A DNA stretch of 61,627 nucleotides from an uncultured Planctomycetales bacterium (GTDB taxonomy: Bacteria > Omnitrophota > Gorgyraeia > Gygaellales > Profunditerraquicolaceae): the NCBI GenBank assembly GCA_964354795.1, contig CAYHBB010000005.1, positions 1-61,627 on the forward strand, given 5' to 3'. A model generated the notes under the pieces. The model worked only from the letters and a program-made list of their open reading frames with translations. It was not told the DNA's origin and did not search any database. Below, piece by piece: positions 3,645-44,286 of this stretch (positions are counted from its first letter, which is position 1; each line of letters begins with the position of its first letter). A program made the translations under genes and the position numbers.

Positions 3645-5186
3645 TTAGGAAACCGCGACTTTCAGCTTCTCTTTATCGATTTTTCCGACCCGGTTCTTGG
3701 GAAGGACCTTGGTAAACTCAAAATGATGGGGTATTTTAAAATGGGCCAGGTGCTGACGCAGAAATTCACGCAGCTCCTCCTTTTCCAACACTTCTCCCTC
3801 TTTTAACACAACGAAAGCCTTAGGCACCTCACCGCGCATGGTATCCGCGATGCCGATGACCGCCACTTCGCTTATCTTAGGATGGCGGTGGATGACTTCT
3901 TCCACCTCAGAGGAAAAGACTATTTCACCGGCCACTTTGATCATGTCTTTGATCCTGCCTACGATAGAACACCGGCCGCGCGTGTCAAAACGAGCCACAT
4001 CTCCGGTCCTTAGCCATCCATCACTAGTAATAGCCTGCTTAGTGAGCTCCGGCTCCTTGTAGTATCCGACCATCACGCACTTGCCTTTGATCCACAGTTC
4101 TCCGTCTTCATCCGGACCAAGAGTGTTGCCGTTATCGCCCACGATCTTTGCCTGGCTTTGGGGAGCAAATTCTCCGGTGTGCGGGATCTCCCGGGTATTG
4201 GTGCCGGTAGCAAAAAAGGCGTTGGGTGCAGCGGTCTCAGTCATGCCCCATCCGTTTAAAAGATAGGCATTCGGGCACTGCCTGTGAAAACGCTCCAATA
4301 ACACCGGTGAAGAAGGCGCGCCGAAAACCACGGCATAGCGTAATGACAATAGATCGAACTTATCGTATTCTTTCAATGATAAAACCGCCACATACATCGA
4401 CGGGACAATGACAAAAATACTGATCTTGTGTTTCTCAATGGTCTTTAGAAACTCAAAAGGCTGGAAGCGCTCCATCAAAACCATGGTCATGCCTGAATTC
4501 AACATCAAGAGCACATGATCCAGGCCACCCAGATGAGAAAAAGGGATCGCCGCGCACAAAAGCACATCTTTGTCGCTTAAAGAAATAAAATACTCAAAAG
4601 TATCCAGCGGATTCTTAAGGTGGCCGTAATTAAGCAGTACACCCTTGGGATGGCCGGTAGAGCCGGAGGTGTAAAAAATCGAGGAGTGGTCCAGTTCACT
4701 GATGTTCTTTTCGCAAGCCCCGGGATTCGTAGCTTTAGCGCTGAATTCCTTATCCCAGAAAAGGAAATCCCGCTCATTAAGATTCTGGGCCTCCCCCACC
4801 TCGAATAAGATGACCTCTTTTAAAGATGGACATTTATTCTTTACGTTCATTAAATCAATACTCTTTTTCCCTTGGGCAATAAGGACTTTGCTTTCGCTGT
4901 GATTGATAAAATTGATCACTTCCTCCTCGGTAAGCATGAAATCCAGCGGCACCGCTATACCGCGCAAGAGAAAAATACCCAGGAAGCTGTAAATATATTC
5001 GGGAATATTGGGAAGAAAGATAGCGACTTTATCGGATCTTTTAACTCCGAGTGAAGATAGGCCGCTTGCGACAGAAAGAGCCTGTTCCTTAAGCGCCCTA
5101 AAGGTGATTGCGGAGTCGCGAAAGAGTATAGCCGGCTTATCGCAATACTTGCCAGCCTGTTTTTCTAAAAGCCCAAGGAAGTCCAT
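3645..5186 (-). CDS. AMP-dependent acyl-CoA synthetase/ligase
   Basis: YTSGSTGHPKGV AMP-binding motif, plus GWLRTGD and PKNRVGKIDK at the C-terminus. Confidence 0.85.
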   Translation of the reverse strand: MDFLGLLEKQAGKYCDKPAILFRDSAITFRALKEQALSVASGLSSLGVKRSDKVAIFLPNIPEYIYSFLGIFLLRGIAVPLDFMLTEEEVINFINHSESKVLIAQGKKSIDLMNVKNKCPSLKEVILFEVGEAQNLNERDFLFWDKEFSAKATNPGACEKNISELDHSSIFYTSGSTGHPKGVLLNYGHLKNPLDTFEYFISLSDKDVLLCAAIPFSHLGGLDHVLLMLNSGMTMVLMERFQPFEFLKTIEKHKISIFVIVPSMYVAVLSLKEYDKFDLLSLRYAVVFGAPSSPVLLERFHRQCPNAYLLNGWGMTETAAPNAFFATGTNTREIPHTGEFAPQSQAKIVGDNGNTLGPDEDGELWIKGKCVMVGYYKEPELTKQAITSDGWLRTGDVARFDTRGRCSIVGRIKDMIKVAGEIVFSSEVEEVIHRHPKISEVAVIGIADTMRGEVPKAFVVLKEGEVLEKEELREFLRQHLAHFKIPHHFEFTKVLPKNRVGKIDKEKLKVAVS

Positions 5187-12078: not shown

Positions 12079-12090
12079 GTTTACTCTCCT

Positions 12091-12133
12091 TTCACAGTAA
12101 GTGAAACACTGGCCTATCCTATAAGGCCAGGTG
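12091..12133 (-). promoter_or_regulatory. Family B leader element (hairpin 1 plus hairpin 2, abutting the SD)
   Basis: Minus-strand RNA: CACCTGGCCT-TATAGGAT-AGGCCAGTG, then TTTCAC-TTACT-GTGAAA, then GGAGAG. Confidence 0.7.
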
Positions 12134-12162
12134 TTAAAAATTCCTGTTTCTCGCGGGCTATA

Positions 12163-19434: not shown

Positions 19435-19445
19435 ATCCTACCTCC

Positions 19446-19489
19446 TTGCGCAGAAAGCGCAACACTGGCTTATCCTTTAAAGCCAGGTG
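19446..19489 (-). promoter_or_regulatory. Family B leader element (intercistronic, between CLF and the rSAM gene)
   Basis: Minus-strand RNA: CACCTGGCTT-TAAAGGAT-AAGCCAGTG, then TTGCGC-TTTCT-GCGCAA, then GGAGG, then 6 nt, then ATG. Confidence 0.75.
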
Positions 19490-19498
19490 CATTCATTA

Positions 19499-24007: not shown

Positions 24008-24021
24008 ATCTAGAGCTCTCC

Positions 24022-24065
24022 TTACGCAGAAAGCGTAACACTGGCCCATCCTTTAGGGCCAGGTG
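24022..24065 (-). promoter_or_regulatory. Family B leader element (first gene of the PKS-like operon)
   Basis: Minus-strand RNA: CACCTGGCCC-TAAAGGAT-GGGCCAGTG, then TTACGC-TTTCT-GCGTAA, then GGAGAG. Confidence 0.75.
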
Positions 24066-24085
24066 AAATCTTAGTTTAATTTAAT

Positions 24086-27763: not shown

Positions 27764-27884
27764 GTTAGCCCCTGCGCTTAGCACCTTGGCATAAATGGCA
27801 CCTTTGCCTATAGGAGGGCAAAGTACGCCTCTTGCGAGGCGTTGCCTAGTGCGCCCCTTCTGGGGCGGAAAGGCGCGGGGCTAC
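27764..27884 (+). ncRNA. Family B nested multi-hairpin element (long form) upstream of comM
   Basis: GCACCTTGGCA...TTGCCTAGTGC encloses CTTTGCC-tatagga-GGGCAAAG and ACGCCTC-ttgc-GAGGCGT, followed by GCGCCCC-ttct-GGGGCG. The outer stem is GCCCCTGCGC/GCGCGGGGC. It is about 85 percent collinear with the reverse complement of 34714-34828. Confidence 0.7.
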
Positions 27885-27939
27885 ACTTTTTGTGTTAGAT
27901 TTTGCCACCCCTTACGTCTATTATAGTAGGAGGTGTTAA

Positions 27940-32636: not shown

Positions 32637-32652
32637 CGTGTTCCTCCTTTTA

Positions 32653-32723
32653 CACTGGCTTATCCGTGCCCACAAGGCACGCACTTGGCAATCCATTATG
32701 CCAAGGTGCTATAAAGCCAGGTG
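32653..32723 (-). promoter_or_regulatory. Family B leader element, once-nested form
   Basis: Minus-strand RNA: CACCTGGCTTTATAG[CACCTTGGCA-TAATGGAT-TGCCAAGTG][CGTGCC-TTGT-GGGCACG]GATAAGCCAGTG, then AAAAGGAGG. Confidence 0.7.
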
Positions 32724-32747
32724 TTATTGATTCTACAAGGTTATCCC

Positions 32748-40655: not shown

Positions 40656-42611
40656 TTACTCCTCTTCGTGTTTGCGGCTAGACTGGTACTGGGTGATGAT
40701 AGACTGCGCTACTTTATGCGGGACTTCCTCGTAATGGGAAAAGCGCATAATATAAGAACCCCTTCCGCCGGTGATGGAGCGCAGATCATTGGCGTATTTG
40801 AACATTTCAGAAAGAGGTATCTGGGCTTTGACGATCTGATTCCTTCCCTTGACATCCATACCCATCACCCGGCCGCGCCGGGAATTGACATCTCCGGAAA
40901 TGGCACCCAGAAAATCTTCGGAGATAGTGATATCTACATCCATGATCGGCTCTAAAAGTACCGGCCCGGCTTCACTCACTGCCTTACGTAAAGCCATAGA
41001 TCCGGCTTTCTGAAAAGCCATATCCGAGGAATCGACATCATGATAAGAGCCGTCAACCAAAGTGACACGCAGATCCTCAATCGGATAACCGGCAACCGCC
41101 CCTTCACTGACTGCCTGGCGCACCCCTTTTTCCACCGAAGGGATAAAGTTCCGGGGTATAGCGCCGCCGAATATTTTATCCACAAACTCAAGGCCCTTGC
41201 CTCTTTCCAGGGGCTGCACCTCGATCCAACAGTCACCATACTGGCCGCGGCCTCCAGACTGACGCTTGAATTTACCCTGGACCTTTAAAACCTTAGTAAT
41301 GGTTTCTTTGTAGGAAACTTTAGGCGTGCCCAGATCCACATTGACATTGAAACGCTTTTTCAGTCGCGTGACCATGACCGTCAAATGCAGGTCGCCCATG
41401 CCGGAAATAATCAGCTCCTTGGTCTGCGGATCATGGCGCACGGTAAACGTGGGGTCTTCCGCCGCAAGCTTATGCAGGGCATCAGATATTTTCTCTTCGT
41501 CCTCGCGAGAATGCGGCTTCACCGAAGCAGAAATGGCTGCTTCCGGGAAAGCCAGCGGATCATACAAAAACTGTTCTTTATCATTAGACAGGGAATCCCC
41601 GACCTCTGTCTCCTTAAGCTTGGCAATGGCCACGATATCTCCGCAGGAAGCGGCGTCAGTGGCCCTTTGTTCTTTCCCCTGCAGATTAAAGATAGTGCCT
41701 ATTCTCTCCTTGGTCTTTTTGTTGACGTTATAGAATCCAGTGTTCGAAGCGAGGATGCCGGAAAACACCCTTAATAAAGTAAGCTGCCCGACATAAGGAT
41801 CGGAAATATTCTTAAAGACAAAAGCGGAAAACGGGGCTTCCGCGGTCAAAACAACCTCTTTTATGGTGTCCAGCTTTGCTGGGTCAGCTGCCTTCACCTT
41901 TAACCGCGACTGCGGATCAGGAAAGTATTTTATAACTGCCTCCAACAACTCCGGCAAACCCTTATCCGCCAGAGCCGAGCCGGCCACAACCGGAAAGATC
42001 TTACGCTTGATCACCGCCTGCGTAAGCGCGGACTTTACTTCTTCCGCAGACAAACTCCCGCTCTCAAGGAATTTCTCAAGCAACTTATCGTCGCTTTCCG
42101 CCACTGCCTCGATCAACTCCGGGTTATCGGCATTATCAATGAAAAAAGCCTTTTTGGAAAGAGTATTTCTTATATTCTCTAAAACCTTGGGGACATCCGA
42201 GGCTTCTTTATCGGTCTTGCTGACAAAAATCATGCAAGGCAGGTCATTCTCTTCCAGAATTTGCCAGGCGCATTCCGTGCCTACTTCCACCCCGCTTGAC
42301 ACATCCACTACCAAAACCGCGCCGTCAACAGCGCGTATACCCTGGATGACCTCGCCGTAAAAATCAGCGTATCCGGGAGTGTCCACTATCTGAATGCGGT
42401 TACCTTTATAATCGCAAAATAACAGGCTTAAGTTTATAGAGCTCTTGCGCTCGATCTCGTCAAAGCTATAATCGCTGACTGTGGTGCCGTCGGATACGCT
42501 ACCTTTGCGGGAGATGGCCTTGCAAAAATACAGCAGCGATTCGGCAAGAGAAGTTTTTCCTGACTGGGCGTGGCCTAAAAGAATAAAGTTTCTTTTATTT
42601 AACACTGCCAT
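40656..42611 (-). CDS. Elongation factor G paralog (EF-G2-like)
   Basis: GHAQSGKTSLAESLL G1 motif, DTPGYADF G3 motif, and domains II-V recognisable. At 651 aa it is shorter than canonical FusA. Confidence 0.8.
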   Translation of the reverse strand: MAVLNKRNFILLGHAQSGKTSLAESLLYFCKAISRKGSVSDGTTVSDYSFDEIERKSSINLSLLFCDYKGNRIQIVDTPGYADFYGEVIQGIRAVDGAVLVVDVSSGVEVGTECAWQILEENDLPCMIFVSKTDKEASDVPKVLENIRNTLSKKAFFIDNADNPELIEAVAESDDKLLEKFLESGSLSAEEVKSALTQAVIKRKIFPVVAGSALADKGLPELLEAVIKYFPDPQSRLKVKAADPAKLDTIKEVVLTAEAPFSAFVFKNISDPYVGQLTLLRVFSGILASNTGFYNVNKKTKERIGTIFNLQGKEQRATDAASCGDIVAIAKLKETEVGDSLSNDKEQFLYDPLAFPEAAISASVKPHSREDEEKISDALHKLAAEDPTFTVRHDPQTKELIISGMGDLHLTVMVTRLKKRFNVNVDLGTPKVSYKETITKVLKVQGKFKRQSGGRGQYGDCWIEVQPLERGKGLEFVDKIFGGAIPRNFIPSVEKGVRQAVSEGAVAGYPIEDLRVTLVDGSYHDVDSSDMAFQKAGSMALRKAVSEAGPVLLEPIMDVDITISEDFLGAISGDVNSRRGRVMGMDVKGRNQIVKAQIPLSEMFKYANDLRSITGGRGSYIMRFSHYEEVPHKVAQSIITQYQSSRKHEEE

Positions 42612-42890
42612 GGCAAGACTCCTTTCGCAGAAAGCGAAACACCAACCTTTCCTATAAGGTTGGGTGTTACAGTAAGCTACGCCCTATAAAGCCAGGTGTA
42701 AGCAGTAAGCAAAACACCAACTTTTCCTATAAAGTTGGGTGTTGCAGTAAACTACACCCCAGCTATAAGGTATGCTGGGTGTGTCCTTTTTAGGACTACA
42801 CCCCAGCTATAAGGTATGCTGGGTGTGTCCTTTTTAGGACAAAACACCGGCCTTTCCTATAAAGCCAGGTGTTTGCTTTAAAGGTAAGAG
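42612..42890 (-). ncRNA. Long structured leader of the EF-G2-like gene (array of family B hairpins)
   Basis: Hairpins lie at 42623-42639, 42639-42667, 42714-42742, 42844-42872 and in the two units at 42752-42839. Three have AGGA in the loop in the mRNA sense. Confidence 0.6.
42752..42839. repeat. Exact 44-nt direct tandem duplication (two hairpins per unit)
   Basis: CTACACCCCAGCTATAAGGTATGCTGGGTGTGTCCTTTTTAGGA occurs at 42752-42795 and again at 42796-42839. Confidence 0.95.
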
Positions 42891-42898
42891 GAAGCCTT

Positions 42899-42927
42899 AT
42901 TATATAATACCTGTATGGGAGGGTCAA
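42899..42927 (-). promoter_or_regulatory. Consensus-like sigma70 promoter for the EF-G2-like gene
   Basis: On the minus strand: TTGACC (42927-42922), a 17-nt spacer, then TATAAT (42904-42899). Confidence 0.65.
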
Positions 42928-43028
42928 GGCTAAATTGGCGTACACCCGGCCTTATGGGAAAGGCCGGTGTGTGGTCCAGAAAGGACACACCCGCTGAACC
43001 TTTAAAGCGGGGTGTAGCTTTCTGCCAC

Positions 43029-43072
43029 AAAAAAGCGCGAAACCCTCAAGGCTTTCCTTTAGAGTTTCGCGC
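43029..43072 (-). terminator. Rho-independent terminator of the kamA / ATP-grasp operon
   Basis: Minus-strand RNA: GCGCGAAAC, a 20-nt loop, GTTTCGCGC, then TTTTTTGTGG. It lies 15 nt after the stop codon. Confidence 0.75.
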
Positions 43073-43086
43073 CTGAATAAATACGG

Positions 43087-44286
43087 TTATTCGAGGTAAG
43101 TATAGATCTTTCCCTTGTAATTGCGCAAGACGAACTTCCCCTTGGCCTGGGAAAGTATATAATTTGGGCCGACTGGGATCTTGCCGCCACCGCCTGGCCC
43201 GTCGATGACATAAGTCGGGACAGCGTAGCCTGAAGTATGTCCGCGCAGCTTTTCCATGATGTTTATGCCGACGGAAACCGGGGTGCGAAAATGCTGAGTG
43301 CCGCGAACGGGATCGCACTGGTAAATATAATATGGCCGCACCCGTATCTGAAGCAACTCATGCAACAGCTTTTTCATGATATAGGGACGATCGTTAATAC
43401 CTTTTAAAAGCACAGTCTGACTACCCAGCGGAACTCCGGACTCGGAAAGCATATCGCAGGCTATTTTGCAGCGCTTAGTGATCTCTTTGGGGTGGTTAAA
43501 ATGGATGCTCATCCAGATAGGCGAATAAATCTTTAGCATATTCACCAAACTCTCGGTGACTCTTTGCGGCAAGGTGACAGGAATACGCGTGCCTATCCTT
43601 AAAAATTCCACATGGGAAATAGAGCGGATCTTCTGCAGTAGATTTTCCAGTTCTTCGTCTTCAAGCAGAAGCGGATCTCCGCCGGAAATCAGAACATCGC
43701 GGATCTTACGGTTCTGACGGATATACTCAATCGCCGCGTCAAAACGAGTTGCTCCGGACTCTCCCTTGGGCTCATGGTCACCTACCAGGCGACGGCGAGT
43801 GCAGTGACGGCAATACATAGCACAGGCTTCGGTGGCCAATAATAGTACTCTATCCGGATAACGATGAACCAAGTGCGGCGCCGGAGAATCCCGATCCTCG
43901 GCACACGGGTCAGTCATCTCGTGCGGTGAAACAGCAGATTCCTCTGCCACCGGCACTGCCTGACGACGAATAGGACAAGTGGCATCCTCTTGATCCATCA
44001 AGGCTGCCCAGTAAGGAGTGATAGCCATAGAAAGCCTGCCCTTAGCCTTATCAATCCCCTTTTCTTCCTCAGGTGTAAGTTTAATGATCTGAGAAAGCAG
44101 CTCCTTGTTGCAAACTCTGTTTTTCAGCTGCCAACGCCAATCTTCCCAATCCAGAGGATTCACATCCTTATATAGTGAGATCTGCTGGTAATCGCGCGGC
44201 CTTCTGATAATGCGCGGCGTGCTTTGCGTTTCCTGCTGCTGGCTTAGAGTTTTATGGTTTTCGATTAGCGACTGAGGATGACTCAA
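43087..44286 (-). CDS. KamA-family radical SAM aminomutase (lysine 2,3-aminomutase-like)
   Basis: CAMYCRHCTRR cluster motif, N-terminal WEDWRWQLKNR, and ISGGDPL. Confidence 0.85.
   Translation of the reverse strand: MSHPQSLIENHKTLSQQQETQSTPRIIRRPRDYQQISLYKDVNPLDWEDWRWQLKNRVCNKELLSQIIKLTPEEEKGIDKAKGRLSMAITPYWAALMDQEDATCPIRRQAVPVAEESAVSPHEMTDPCAEDRDSPAPHLVHRYPDRVLLLATEACAMYCRHCTRRRLVGDHEPKGESGATRFDAAIEYIRQNRKIRDVLISGGDPLLLEDEELENLLQKIRSISHVEFLRIGTRIPVTLPQRVTESLVNMLKIYSPIWMSIHFNHPKEITKRCKIACDMLSESGVPLGSQTVLLKGINDRPYIMKKLLHELLQIRVRPYYIYQCDPVRGTQHFRTPVSVGINIMEKLRGHTSGYAVPTYVIDGPGGGGKIPVGPNYILSQAKGKFVLRNYKGKIYTYLE

Follow-up and report, generated by a model that had tools for sequence, protein, structure and literature searches.

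A probable lineage-specific stack of dispersed hairpin repeats at the ribosome-binding site of an EF-G-like gene of Omnitrophota

In contig CAYHBB010000005.1 from an uncultured bacterium of the phylum Omnitrophota, a gene for a protein resembling elongation factor G (EF-G) is separated from a KamA-family aminomutase gene by a spacer rich in hairpins. The complete stretch of 61,627 nt that was analysed is here called the window, and all positions refer to it unless another locus is named. The hairpins belong to a repeat family, the basic unit of which is a hairpin A followed by a small hairpin h2, and a covariance model comprising A, h2 and the Shine-Dalgarno sequence (SD), termed R1, was used for their detection. 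The features of the locus are the following:

40656-42611, minus strand: gene for the 651-aa EF-G-like protein (open reading frame (ORF) list), ATG at 42609-42611; match to NCBIfam NF009381 'elongation factor G' with 826 bits
42619-42625, minus strand: SD AAAGGAG, read from the sequence; its first A's double as the last bases of h2
42624-42638, minus strand: h2, UUCGC-UUUCU-GCGAA, abutting the SD; corresponds to helix 2 of the family model
42639-42667, minus strand: SD-proximal hairpin A1, ACACC-C-AACC UUAUAGGAAA GGUU-GGUGU; A1, h2 and SD together score 78.8 bits against R1
42683-42699, minus strand: truncated hairpin A, 5' half only, ACACCUGGCUUUAUAGG, assigned from the repeat family and the sequence
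42714-42742, minus strand: hairpin A2; R1 match at 42690-42744 with 50.9 bits
42751-42838, minus strand: two exact 44-nt C-B units, from repeat searches
42783-42796 and 42827-42840, minus strand: C element, GUCCUAAAAAGGAC, part of the C-B units
42754-42782 and 42798-42826, minus strand: B element, an inverted A-like hairpin, part of the C-B units
42844-42872, minus strand: promoter-proximal hairpin A5 with two G.U pairs on the sense strand, from pattern and R1
42927-42899, minus strand: sigma-70-type promoter TTGACC-17-TATAAT, matching at 11 of 12 positions
42941-43028, plus strand: complete A-C-B-h2 composite in opposite orientation, an orphan between terminator and promoter
42942-42970 (A6), 42974-42986 (C), 42987-43015 (B7) and 43016-43026 (h2-like), plus strand: parts of this composite
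43029-43072, minus strand: terminator-like hairpin and U-run 3' of the aminomutase gene, from an inverted repeat and the sequence
43087-44286, minus strand: KamA-family aminomutase gene, on the far side of the spacer from the EF-G-like gene

The motif ACACC-N12-30-GGTGT occurs eight times in the window, compared with 0.19 expected, and eight matches were reached in 0 of 100 shuffles. Seven of the eight, of the form ACACC-N19-GGTGT, lie within 42639-43015, where hairpins had already been placed by a sequence-only reading of this DNA. The exact 44-nt tandem duplication described in that reading was recovered as well, by Tandem Repeats Finder (2.0 copies, 42751-42840) and by a repeat search (42751-42794 against 42795-42838, 100% identity), and so was the proposed promoter with its long leader; this is the only promoter-like site in 42400-43300. 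A2 and its h2-like linker form a 58-nt copy of the A1 unit (88% identical, 75 nt apart). For the predicted leader RNA of 297 nt, folding gives a series of local hairpins (-113 kcal/mol; z = -6.1 relative to shuffled sequences), and in the centroid structure the SD is unpaired. The three sense hairpins of the leader (A1, A2 and A5) have UAUAGGAA loops, i.e. several loop GGAs in addition to the GGA of the SD. The terminator-like hairpin at 43029-43072 was not called by a simple terminator scan.

The EF-G-like gene is located outside the str-operon context, next to kamA-like, a YchF-like fragment and purH, and together with its neighbours it is conserved across Omnitrophota. The encoded protein passes the broad NF009381 model only and fails the EF-G and EF-G2 equivalogs. 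It shares 85% identity with its counterpart in the metagenome-assembled genome (MAG) CAYGZJ01 and 53-77% with those of other loci, nearly all from Omnitrophota MAGs, which assigns the window to this phylum. It looks like a phylum-wide EF-G paralog of unassigned role.

The basic unit of the repeat family has a length of 42-45 nt. Hairpin A (29 nt) is composed of the foot ACAC/GUGU, a bulged C, a variable stem of 5-6 bp and an 8-nt loop UAWAGGAW, while h2 follows the pattern NNNN-UUUCU-NNNN with either UUUCU or UUACU as the loop. The second module, C-B, comprises 44 nt with a small hairpin and the inverted A-like hairpin. In copies oriented such that the loop reads UUAUAGGAAA, the order is A, h2, AAGGAGG and ATG, before genes that are unrelated to each other. 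Among 127 matches to the model, 98% of cells were paired and double changes were observed in 14 of 15 pairs, those of h2 (all five) among them; none of 500 shuffles reached the observed values, and slid controls were 30-41% paired. The pair counts of this alignment lean towards structure because it was fitted to the model; the same covariation picture was obtained from a hand-built alignment of 11 sequences. In helix 1, G.U wobbles and A.C mismatches on the sense strand occur in a ratio of 11:1, and this excess points to selection acting on the hairpin of the sense strand, be it RNA or single-stranded DNA of that strand. The GGA of the loop is almost invariant, with UAAAGGAU in 56 copies, UAUAGGAU in 27 and UAUAGGAA in 21. 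Since foot and loop keep their sequence while the stem drifts, recognition by some factor is suggested, which could be a transposase acting on DNA or, on RNA, a GGA-reading partner, namely a CsrA-like protein or the 30S subunit through its anti-SD tail. No 16S rRNA 3' end with which pairing of loop and anti-SD could be compared was present in the fetched loci. A kissing interaction between the loops of hairpin A and h2 was considered and rejected, as the loop variants do not covary.

For the distribution of the family, species-representative genomes were scanned with a pattern covering hairpin A only. A first scan, with matches in Omnitrophota MAGs, returned 13 stretches, two of which look like chance matches. 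The second scan, with the major loop variant, yielded 34 stretches, and about 20 Omnitrophota MAGs account for 33, most of which belong to JAPLLR01; the remaining one comes from outside the phylum, lacks pairing and looks like a chance match. MAG JAPLLR01 contains about 19 strict matches, and one of its proteins is 98% identical to the radical-SAM protein of the window. In metagenomes at least 120 stretches carry the hairpin-A-only pattern. Intergenic hairpin repeats of this kind were not found to be reported for Omnitrophota in the literature searched, and no match came up in Rfam.

The position of the copies relative to genes was counted for 83 distinct, well-paired copies whose detection had imposed no constraint on context. 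An SD and a start codon follow on the same strand after 22-45 nt (mode 24-28) in 48 of them and after 46-300 nt, behind further modules, in another 18; 13 copies have no sense gene within 300 nt, and four lie too near a contig end. Two of the 13 copies without a called gene precede a 49-aa gene, just under the cut-off of 50 aa used in the scan. About 84% of the copies are in sense orientation at a fixed distance before a gene, and the 3' end of the unit falls exactly at the (A)AGGAG or AAGGAGG of the ribosome-binding site. The downstream genes are unrelated and include the EF-G-like gene, rplU, pilT and genes for PilZ, a PfkB kinase, AMMECR1, a phosphorylase, radical-SAM and hypothetical proteins. 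A conserved 5' flank that would indicate an insertion target was not found among the copies, which show mild A/T richness only.

Orthologous sites with and without the unit were compared at three genes. For the EF-G-like gene, 80 orthologous loci (508 kb) were kept, in which R1 gave one match overall and none upstream of the gene; MAG JAPLLR01, the closest relative of the window, is not represented among these loci. The MAG closest to the window came from sediment of Lac Pavin. Of the 80 loci, the closest, L014, has the same gene order, a homologous promoter and a 24-nt leader ending in AGGAG, without any array; the SD of the EF-G-like gene is present also at this 'empty' site. In the window, the space exactly between the L014-type leader and the SD is taken up by hairpins over about 246 nt (42872 to 42627). 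Upstream of the EF-G promoter, L014 contains an ORF of about 50 codons (MIKKIIITALVIFAALWFYKKYMA), which probably encodes a membrane peptide, between promoter and aminomutase gene (L014 2256-2415, compared with 42930-43087); in the window, the terminator-like hairpin and the antisense repeat composite stand in its place.

The leader of the radical-SAM gene is filled in seven genomes (window, L214, L226, L240, L242, L260 and L269) and, among the 80 other species compared, empty in most orthologous loci. In L261, gagaa is directly followed by AGGAG, whereas in L242 a unit stands between gagaa and AGGAG. From the junctions of the empty and filled sites, which coincide at the three genes, it follows that the SD is not part of the unit, which is placed directly 5' of it. 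The insertion in L242 lies within the 3' end of the upstream ORF, the stop codon of which has moved into the hairpin loop. More generally, the stop codon (TAA or TAG) of the upstream ORF is found within the hairpin or at its start in L242, L260, L269 and L323 (5040-5055), so that a unit inserted into an SD lying inside a preceding ORF rewrites the C-terminus of the upstream protein. At the third site, the MGHTCNS gene, the unit is present in eight species, and even its foot has undergone compensatory changes (ACGCC/GGCGT, ACATC/GAUGU); the site of the window is empty and reads TAAaggagaaaatATG.

Block-wise turnover was also observed in a comparison of the DNA runs X1-X4 over window positions 42300-43400. 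An 895-nt contig of run X1, which originates from a sediment sample, joins 42940 to 43029 and lacks the 88-nt antisense A-C-B-h2 composite as one block. A DNA-run contig with the joint 42747 to 42843 lacks both 44-nt units, and a low-depth contig with the joint 42598 to 42898 lacks the entire array. Strains and species differ by the gain and loss of units as whole blocks. Units also grow in tandem and nest: the C-B module is found at 19 distinct places and is repeated four times in tandem in L138, L323 contains the 42-nt A-h2 unit at least three times in perfect tandem, and units sit within one another's GGA loops, with a nesting depth of up to three.

The spacer is best explained, with a probability of about 0.7, as a lineage-specific stack of a dispersed, modular, SD-adjacent hairpin leader repeat of Omnitrophota. 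Its descriptive part, an SD-fixed, sense-oriented and structurally constrained two-hairpin unit that is gained and lost as a block and amplified in tandem, is observed and can be stated with good to high confidence. The hairpins of the EF-G spacer are a recent pile-up and not a regulator specific to the EF-G-like gene. That the units act in translation initiation or mRNA stability, rather than as a gene-specific switch, is put forward tentatively, with a chance slightly short of even.

Several points weigh against this explanation. Approximately 11-13 of 79 copies are orphans without an SD, and several of these adjoin the A-runs of opposite-strand terminators. The excess of G.U over A.C comprises 12 events only, and a hairpin of single-stranded DNA on the same strand would fit it too. 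Neither target-site duplications nor terminal inverted repeats were found in the two empty/filled pairs inspected for them (EF-G leader and MGHTCNS gene). The copy number of the array could be affected by short-read assembly, as contigs break at repeats. A search of 1.65 Mb of related DNA detected no transposase, csrA or other trans-acting factor: tblastn with three CsrA sequences and FliW returned no csrA or fliW gene there, nor was csrA found in the window, a weak test on loci rather than whole genomes, and over the same loci tblastn with IS200 TnpA and an approximate RAYT sequence returned no Y1/RAYT gene. Both of the weak tblastn matches are internal to other genes, one for a type IV pilus protein in L013 and the other a large ORF in L178. 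Metatranscriptome run X23 does not cover this leader and, of the EF-G-like gene, contains only relatives of about 90% identity. The generic element is present in four of its contigs, weak evidence that it is transcribed; such a run can contain DNA. Finally, conservation of the unit at the MGHTCNS site across eight species points to function rather than mobility there, whereas its patchy presence at other sites points the opposite way, and both may be stages of one process.

Among the alternatives, a purely selfish DNA of the REP (repetitive extragenic palindromic) or REPIN type ranks highest, although it is considered unlikely. According to this explanation, single-stranded DNA hairpins are recognised by RAYT or another HUH/Y1 transposase and land by a preference for purine tracts, with no role of the RNA. 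The patchy occupation of orthologous sites, block indels within one population and nested self-insertion are in line with it, and so are the inverted A/B doublets with short spacer, as in REPINs, and the orphan copies next to A-runs. IS200/IS605-type enzymes bind hairpins with conserved foot, bulge and loop and a variable stem, which is the pattern of conservation seen here. That no Y1/RAYT gene was found in the 1.65 Mb of related loci counts against purely selfish DNA, as do the retention of the unit at one orthologous leader in eight species with compensatory changes and the fixed distance and sense orientation of about 84% of the copies.

The likeness to BIMEs (bacterial interspersed mosaic elements) proposed in the sequence-only reading was borne out insofar as the family behaves as clustered, alternately oriented palindromic repeats. 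Like the REP/BIME/REPIN families of Proteobacteria, whose cognate RAYT gene is flanked by two inverted REPs, the units are short, imperfect extragenic palindromes in many copies, with hairpins of 29 nt against 20-40 nt in those families, occur in alternating-orientation clusters and inverted doublets (here forward A, C and inverted A-like B), are kept palindromic by compensatory changes and would be transcribed within mRNAs. They differ from them in the AU-rich, conserved GGA loop, the second small hairpin, the fixation of the 3' end at the SD in sense orientation and the occurrence in the phylum Omnitrophota. REP palindromes are adjoined by a conserved GT(A/G)G head (PMC2817692). On the sense strand such a head adjoins 1 of 171 distinct copies, on the opposite strand 6 of 171, i.e. 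at most 6 of 171, which separates the units from REP elements and speaks against the selfish explanation. The REP-like GTAG/CTAC flank that had been read from the sequence did not hold: CTAC results from 'CT' and the ACACC foot of B-type hairpins.

A CsrA/RsmA-type system, in which the GGA of the loop and the GGA of the SD form a two-site target and the EF-G leader with three or four sites is a strongly regulated target or a CsrB-like sponge, is rather improbable. The core of the CsrA selection consensus is ARGGAU, which the loops AAGGAU and UAGGAU fit, and the second GGA in the SD is about 30 nt away. GGAG is rare in the loops (4 of 127), which speaks for this system. CsrA/RsmA sites and CsrB/RsmZ sponges resemble the units in that hairpin loops expose a GGA, another GGA lies in the SD, and one RNA carries several such hairpins. 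The invariant foot and bulge, in contrast, are not explained by CsrA binding and, like the dispersed-repeat behaviour, are traits of the units and not of Csr targets. The array is absent from orthologs and varies within a population, and csrA and fliW were not seen in the related DNA, with the weakness of that test noted above. As to the sponge RNA of the CsrB/RsmZ type suggested from the sequence alone, the array runs into the SD and ORF without a transcription unit or terminator of its own, and the module stands singly before many unrelated genes. Rfam searches, at the gathering threshold as well as at E <= 10, returned tRNAs and noise only and no Csr/Rsm family. With no transcription unit of its own, no Rfam match, no conservation and no csrA seen in the DNA searched, a CsrB-like sRNA is not supported. 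No paper linking Omnitrophota with CsrA control was found.

It is very improbable that the array is an assembly artefact in which reads of many dispersed copies were mis-joined. The contigs of four DNA runs do break inside the array, where the word depth on hairpins rises to about 110 compared with about 7 on the flanks, so that the exact copy number of the array cannot be checked independently here. However, both flanks are syntenic with L014, partial contigs tie parts of the array to unique flanks, and equivalent arrays are present in independent assemblies (4 x 44 nt in L138, at least 3 x 42 nt in L323). In runs X1-X4, contigs end at the hairpins of 42300-43400, where word depth was 5-15 times that of the flanks; repeats of this family probably contribute to the breaking up of contigs in Omnitrophota MAGs.

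A gene-specific attenuator or riboswitch of the EF-G-like gene, with three hairpins and UGUUUU as terminators, is largely refuted: a simple scan does call three terminator-like sites, at A1, A2 and A5, but a U-run is no feature of the family, most copies continue with UCCGCUUUCUGCGG, the unit precedes unrelated genes, no Rfam family matched, and none of the 80 orthologous leaders has a model match upstream of the gene, L014 being without the array altogether. Missing conservation in orthologous leaders is an outcome that the sequence-only reading had itself listed as refuting, and a regulator specific to this gene is not supported. Integron attC sites, hairpins with R''/R' core sites that bound the cassettes of mobile arrays, were rejected because the flanking genes are syntenic housekeeping genes across Omnitrophota and a GTTRRRY core is missing, a MITE (miniature inverted-repeat transposable element) because of the missing terminal inverted repeats and target-site duplications at the EF-G leader and MGHTCNS pairs, and a CRISPR array because it fails a defining feature.

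For the SD-adjacent leader repeat, the following course of events is proposed. Once the lineage had separated from its nearest sequenced relative, a block of about 246 nt, made up of three A units, a half unit and a pair of C-B units, was added between the conserved promoter and the conserved SD, and the 88-nt composite was added upstream of the promoter. The units presumably spread by copy-insertion anchored on purine tracts such as AAGGAG, which would explain the junction at the SD, the nesting in GGA loops and the orphans at A-runs. A single-strand transposase is a candidate for the spreading agent, as is microhomology-driven template switching, and arrays might grow at the SD-proximal end by repeated insertion or slippage. 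Units within a leader would be transcribed and fold as beads of hairpins that leave the SD single-stranded and show an AAGGAU or UAGGAA loop about 30 nt upstream of it. These hairpins may be the docking site for a GGA-reading factor, i.e. the 30S anti-SD tail or a CsrA-like protein. A bolder version is speculative and stands at perhaps one chance in a few: the unit would be a self-propagating module that inserts at the ribosome-binding site itself and in the GGA loops of earlier copies, giving each gene it reaches one hairpin for protein or ribosome binding and wiring unrelated genes of Omnitrophota into one post-transcriptional circuit. No SD-targeted mobile element was found in the literature searched.

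In the window the 29-nt hairpins are present at six loci. Besides the EF-G leader, R1 detected four further full units on the minus strand, every one of them immediately preceding a gene (at 12082, 19438, 24014 and 32640), as well as a nested copy on the plus strand:

12082-12136, minus strand: single A, h2 and SD before a PNP_UDP_1 phosphorylase gene (R1 75.6 bits; Pfam)
19438-19492, minus strand: single A, h2 and SD between the stop codon of a ketoacyl-synthase gene and a B12-binding radical-SAM gene (R1 63.4 bits; Pfam)
24014-24068, minus strand: single A, h2 and SD before an 89-aa ORF (R1 60.8 bits)
27768-27900, plus strand: triple-nested copy (unit in the loop of a unit in the loop of a unit) upstream of a Mg-chelatase/ComM-like gene (R1; Pfam)
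32640-32726, minus strand: hairpin A with its loop split as UAUAG^GAUA by a nested second unit (A-like and small hairpin), followed by an SD

The unit at 24014-24068 is located about 35 nt downstream of a promoter-like site TTGACA..TATAAT. At several loci a second recurring intergenic sequence, roughly CTACACTTTTTGTGTTAGATTTTGCC(A/T)CCCCTTACGTCTATTATAGTGAGGGCATAACTTA, adjoins the hairpin units; its sites are 27876-27935 of the window (plus strand), where it runs into the SD of the Mg-chelatase/ComM-like gene, L008 about 1760-1880, L111 774-797, L115 about 715-752 and L013 about 4640-4690. It may be a second repeat family or a cassette carrying a promoter. In other species of Omnitrophota, the spacer upstream of the radical-SAM gene (130 nt inspected, L214-L293) contains quite different palindromic or low-complexity repeats, for example GGGGACGGTTCTA hairpins in L249, L252, L282 and L287 and repeats of the AAATCCTAAAC type in L233, L245, L248 and L291. 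As different repeats occupy one orthologous spacer, colonisation by intergenic repeats seems to be general in Omnitrophota.

Further families of small repeats share some of these traits. Pneumococcal BOX elements, with the structure boxA-boxB(n)-boxC, are modular with a variable number of internal modules, lie near genes with which they are co-transcribed, and are predicted to form stable RNA hairpins; they have no sequence relation to the units and are not known to be fixed at the SD or to carry a GGA loop. Mycobacterial interspersed repetitive units (MIRUs) are similar in lying between operon genes in the orientation of the genes, in a tandem copy number that varies between strains and in overlapping the stop and start signals of their neighbours; in the present family, L242, L260, L269 and L323 have the stop codon of the upstream ORF within the element. 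MIRUs are direct repeats that are read as small ORFs and not covarying hairpins, and we know of no nested insertion among them. Correia elements of Neisseria and ERIC elements of enterobacteria resemble the units as small non-coding repeats near genes, the presence of which differs between strains. They are co-transcribed MITEs of 100-160 bp that can change mRNA stability or expression, with terminal inverted repeats and target duplications that were not seen for the units.

Intergenic hairpin repeats have been well studied in Proteobacteria and Firmicutes. The family in Omnitrophota has three unusual traits, namely a 3' end fixed at the SD, a strong sense orientation and a near-invariant GGA loop on covarying stems. 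If its position reflects targeting, it would be a mobile element homing to ribosome-binding sites. If the position reflects selection, it would be a common leader module of perhaps a tenth of the operons, an estimate based on six loci among about 55 genes of the window. On either reading, the units would serve to mark variation at the level of strains and would explain why assemblies of Omnitrophota MAGs break.

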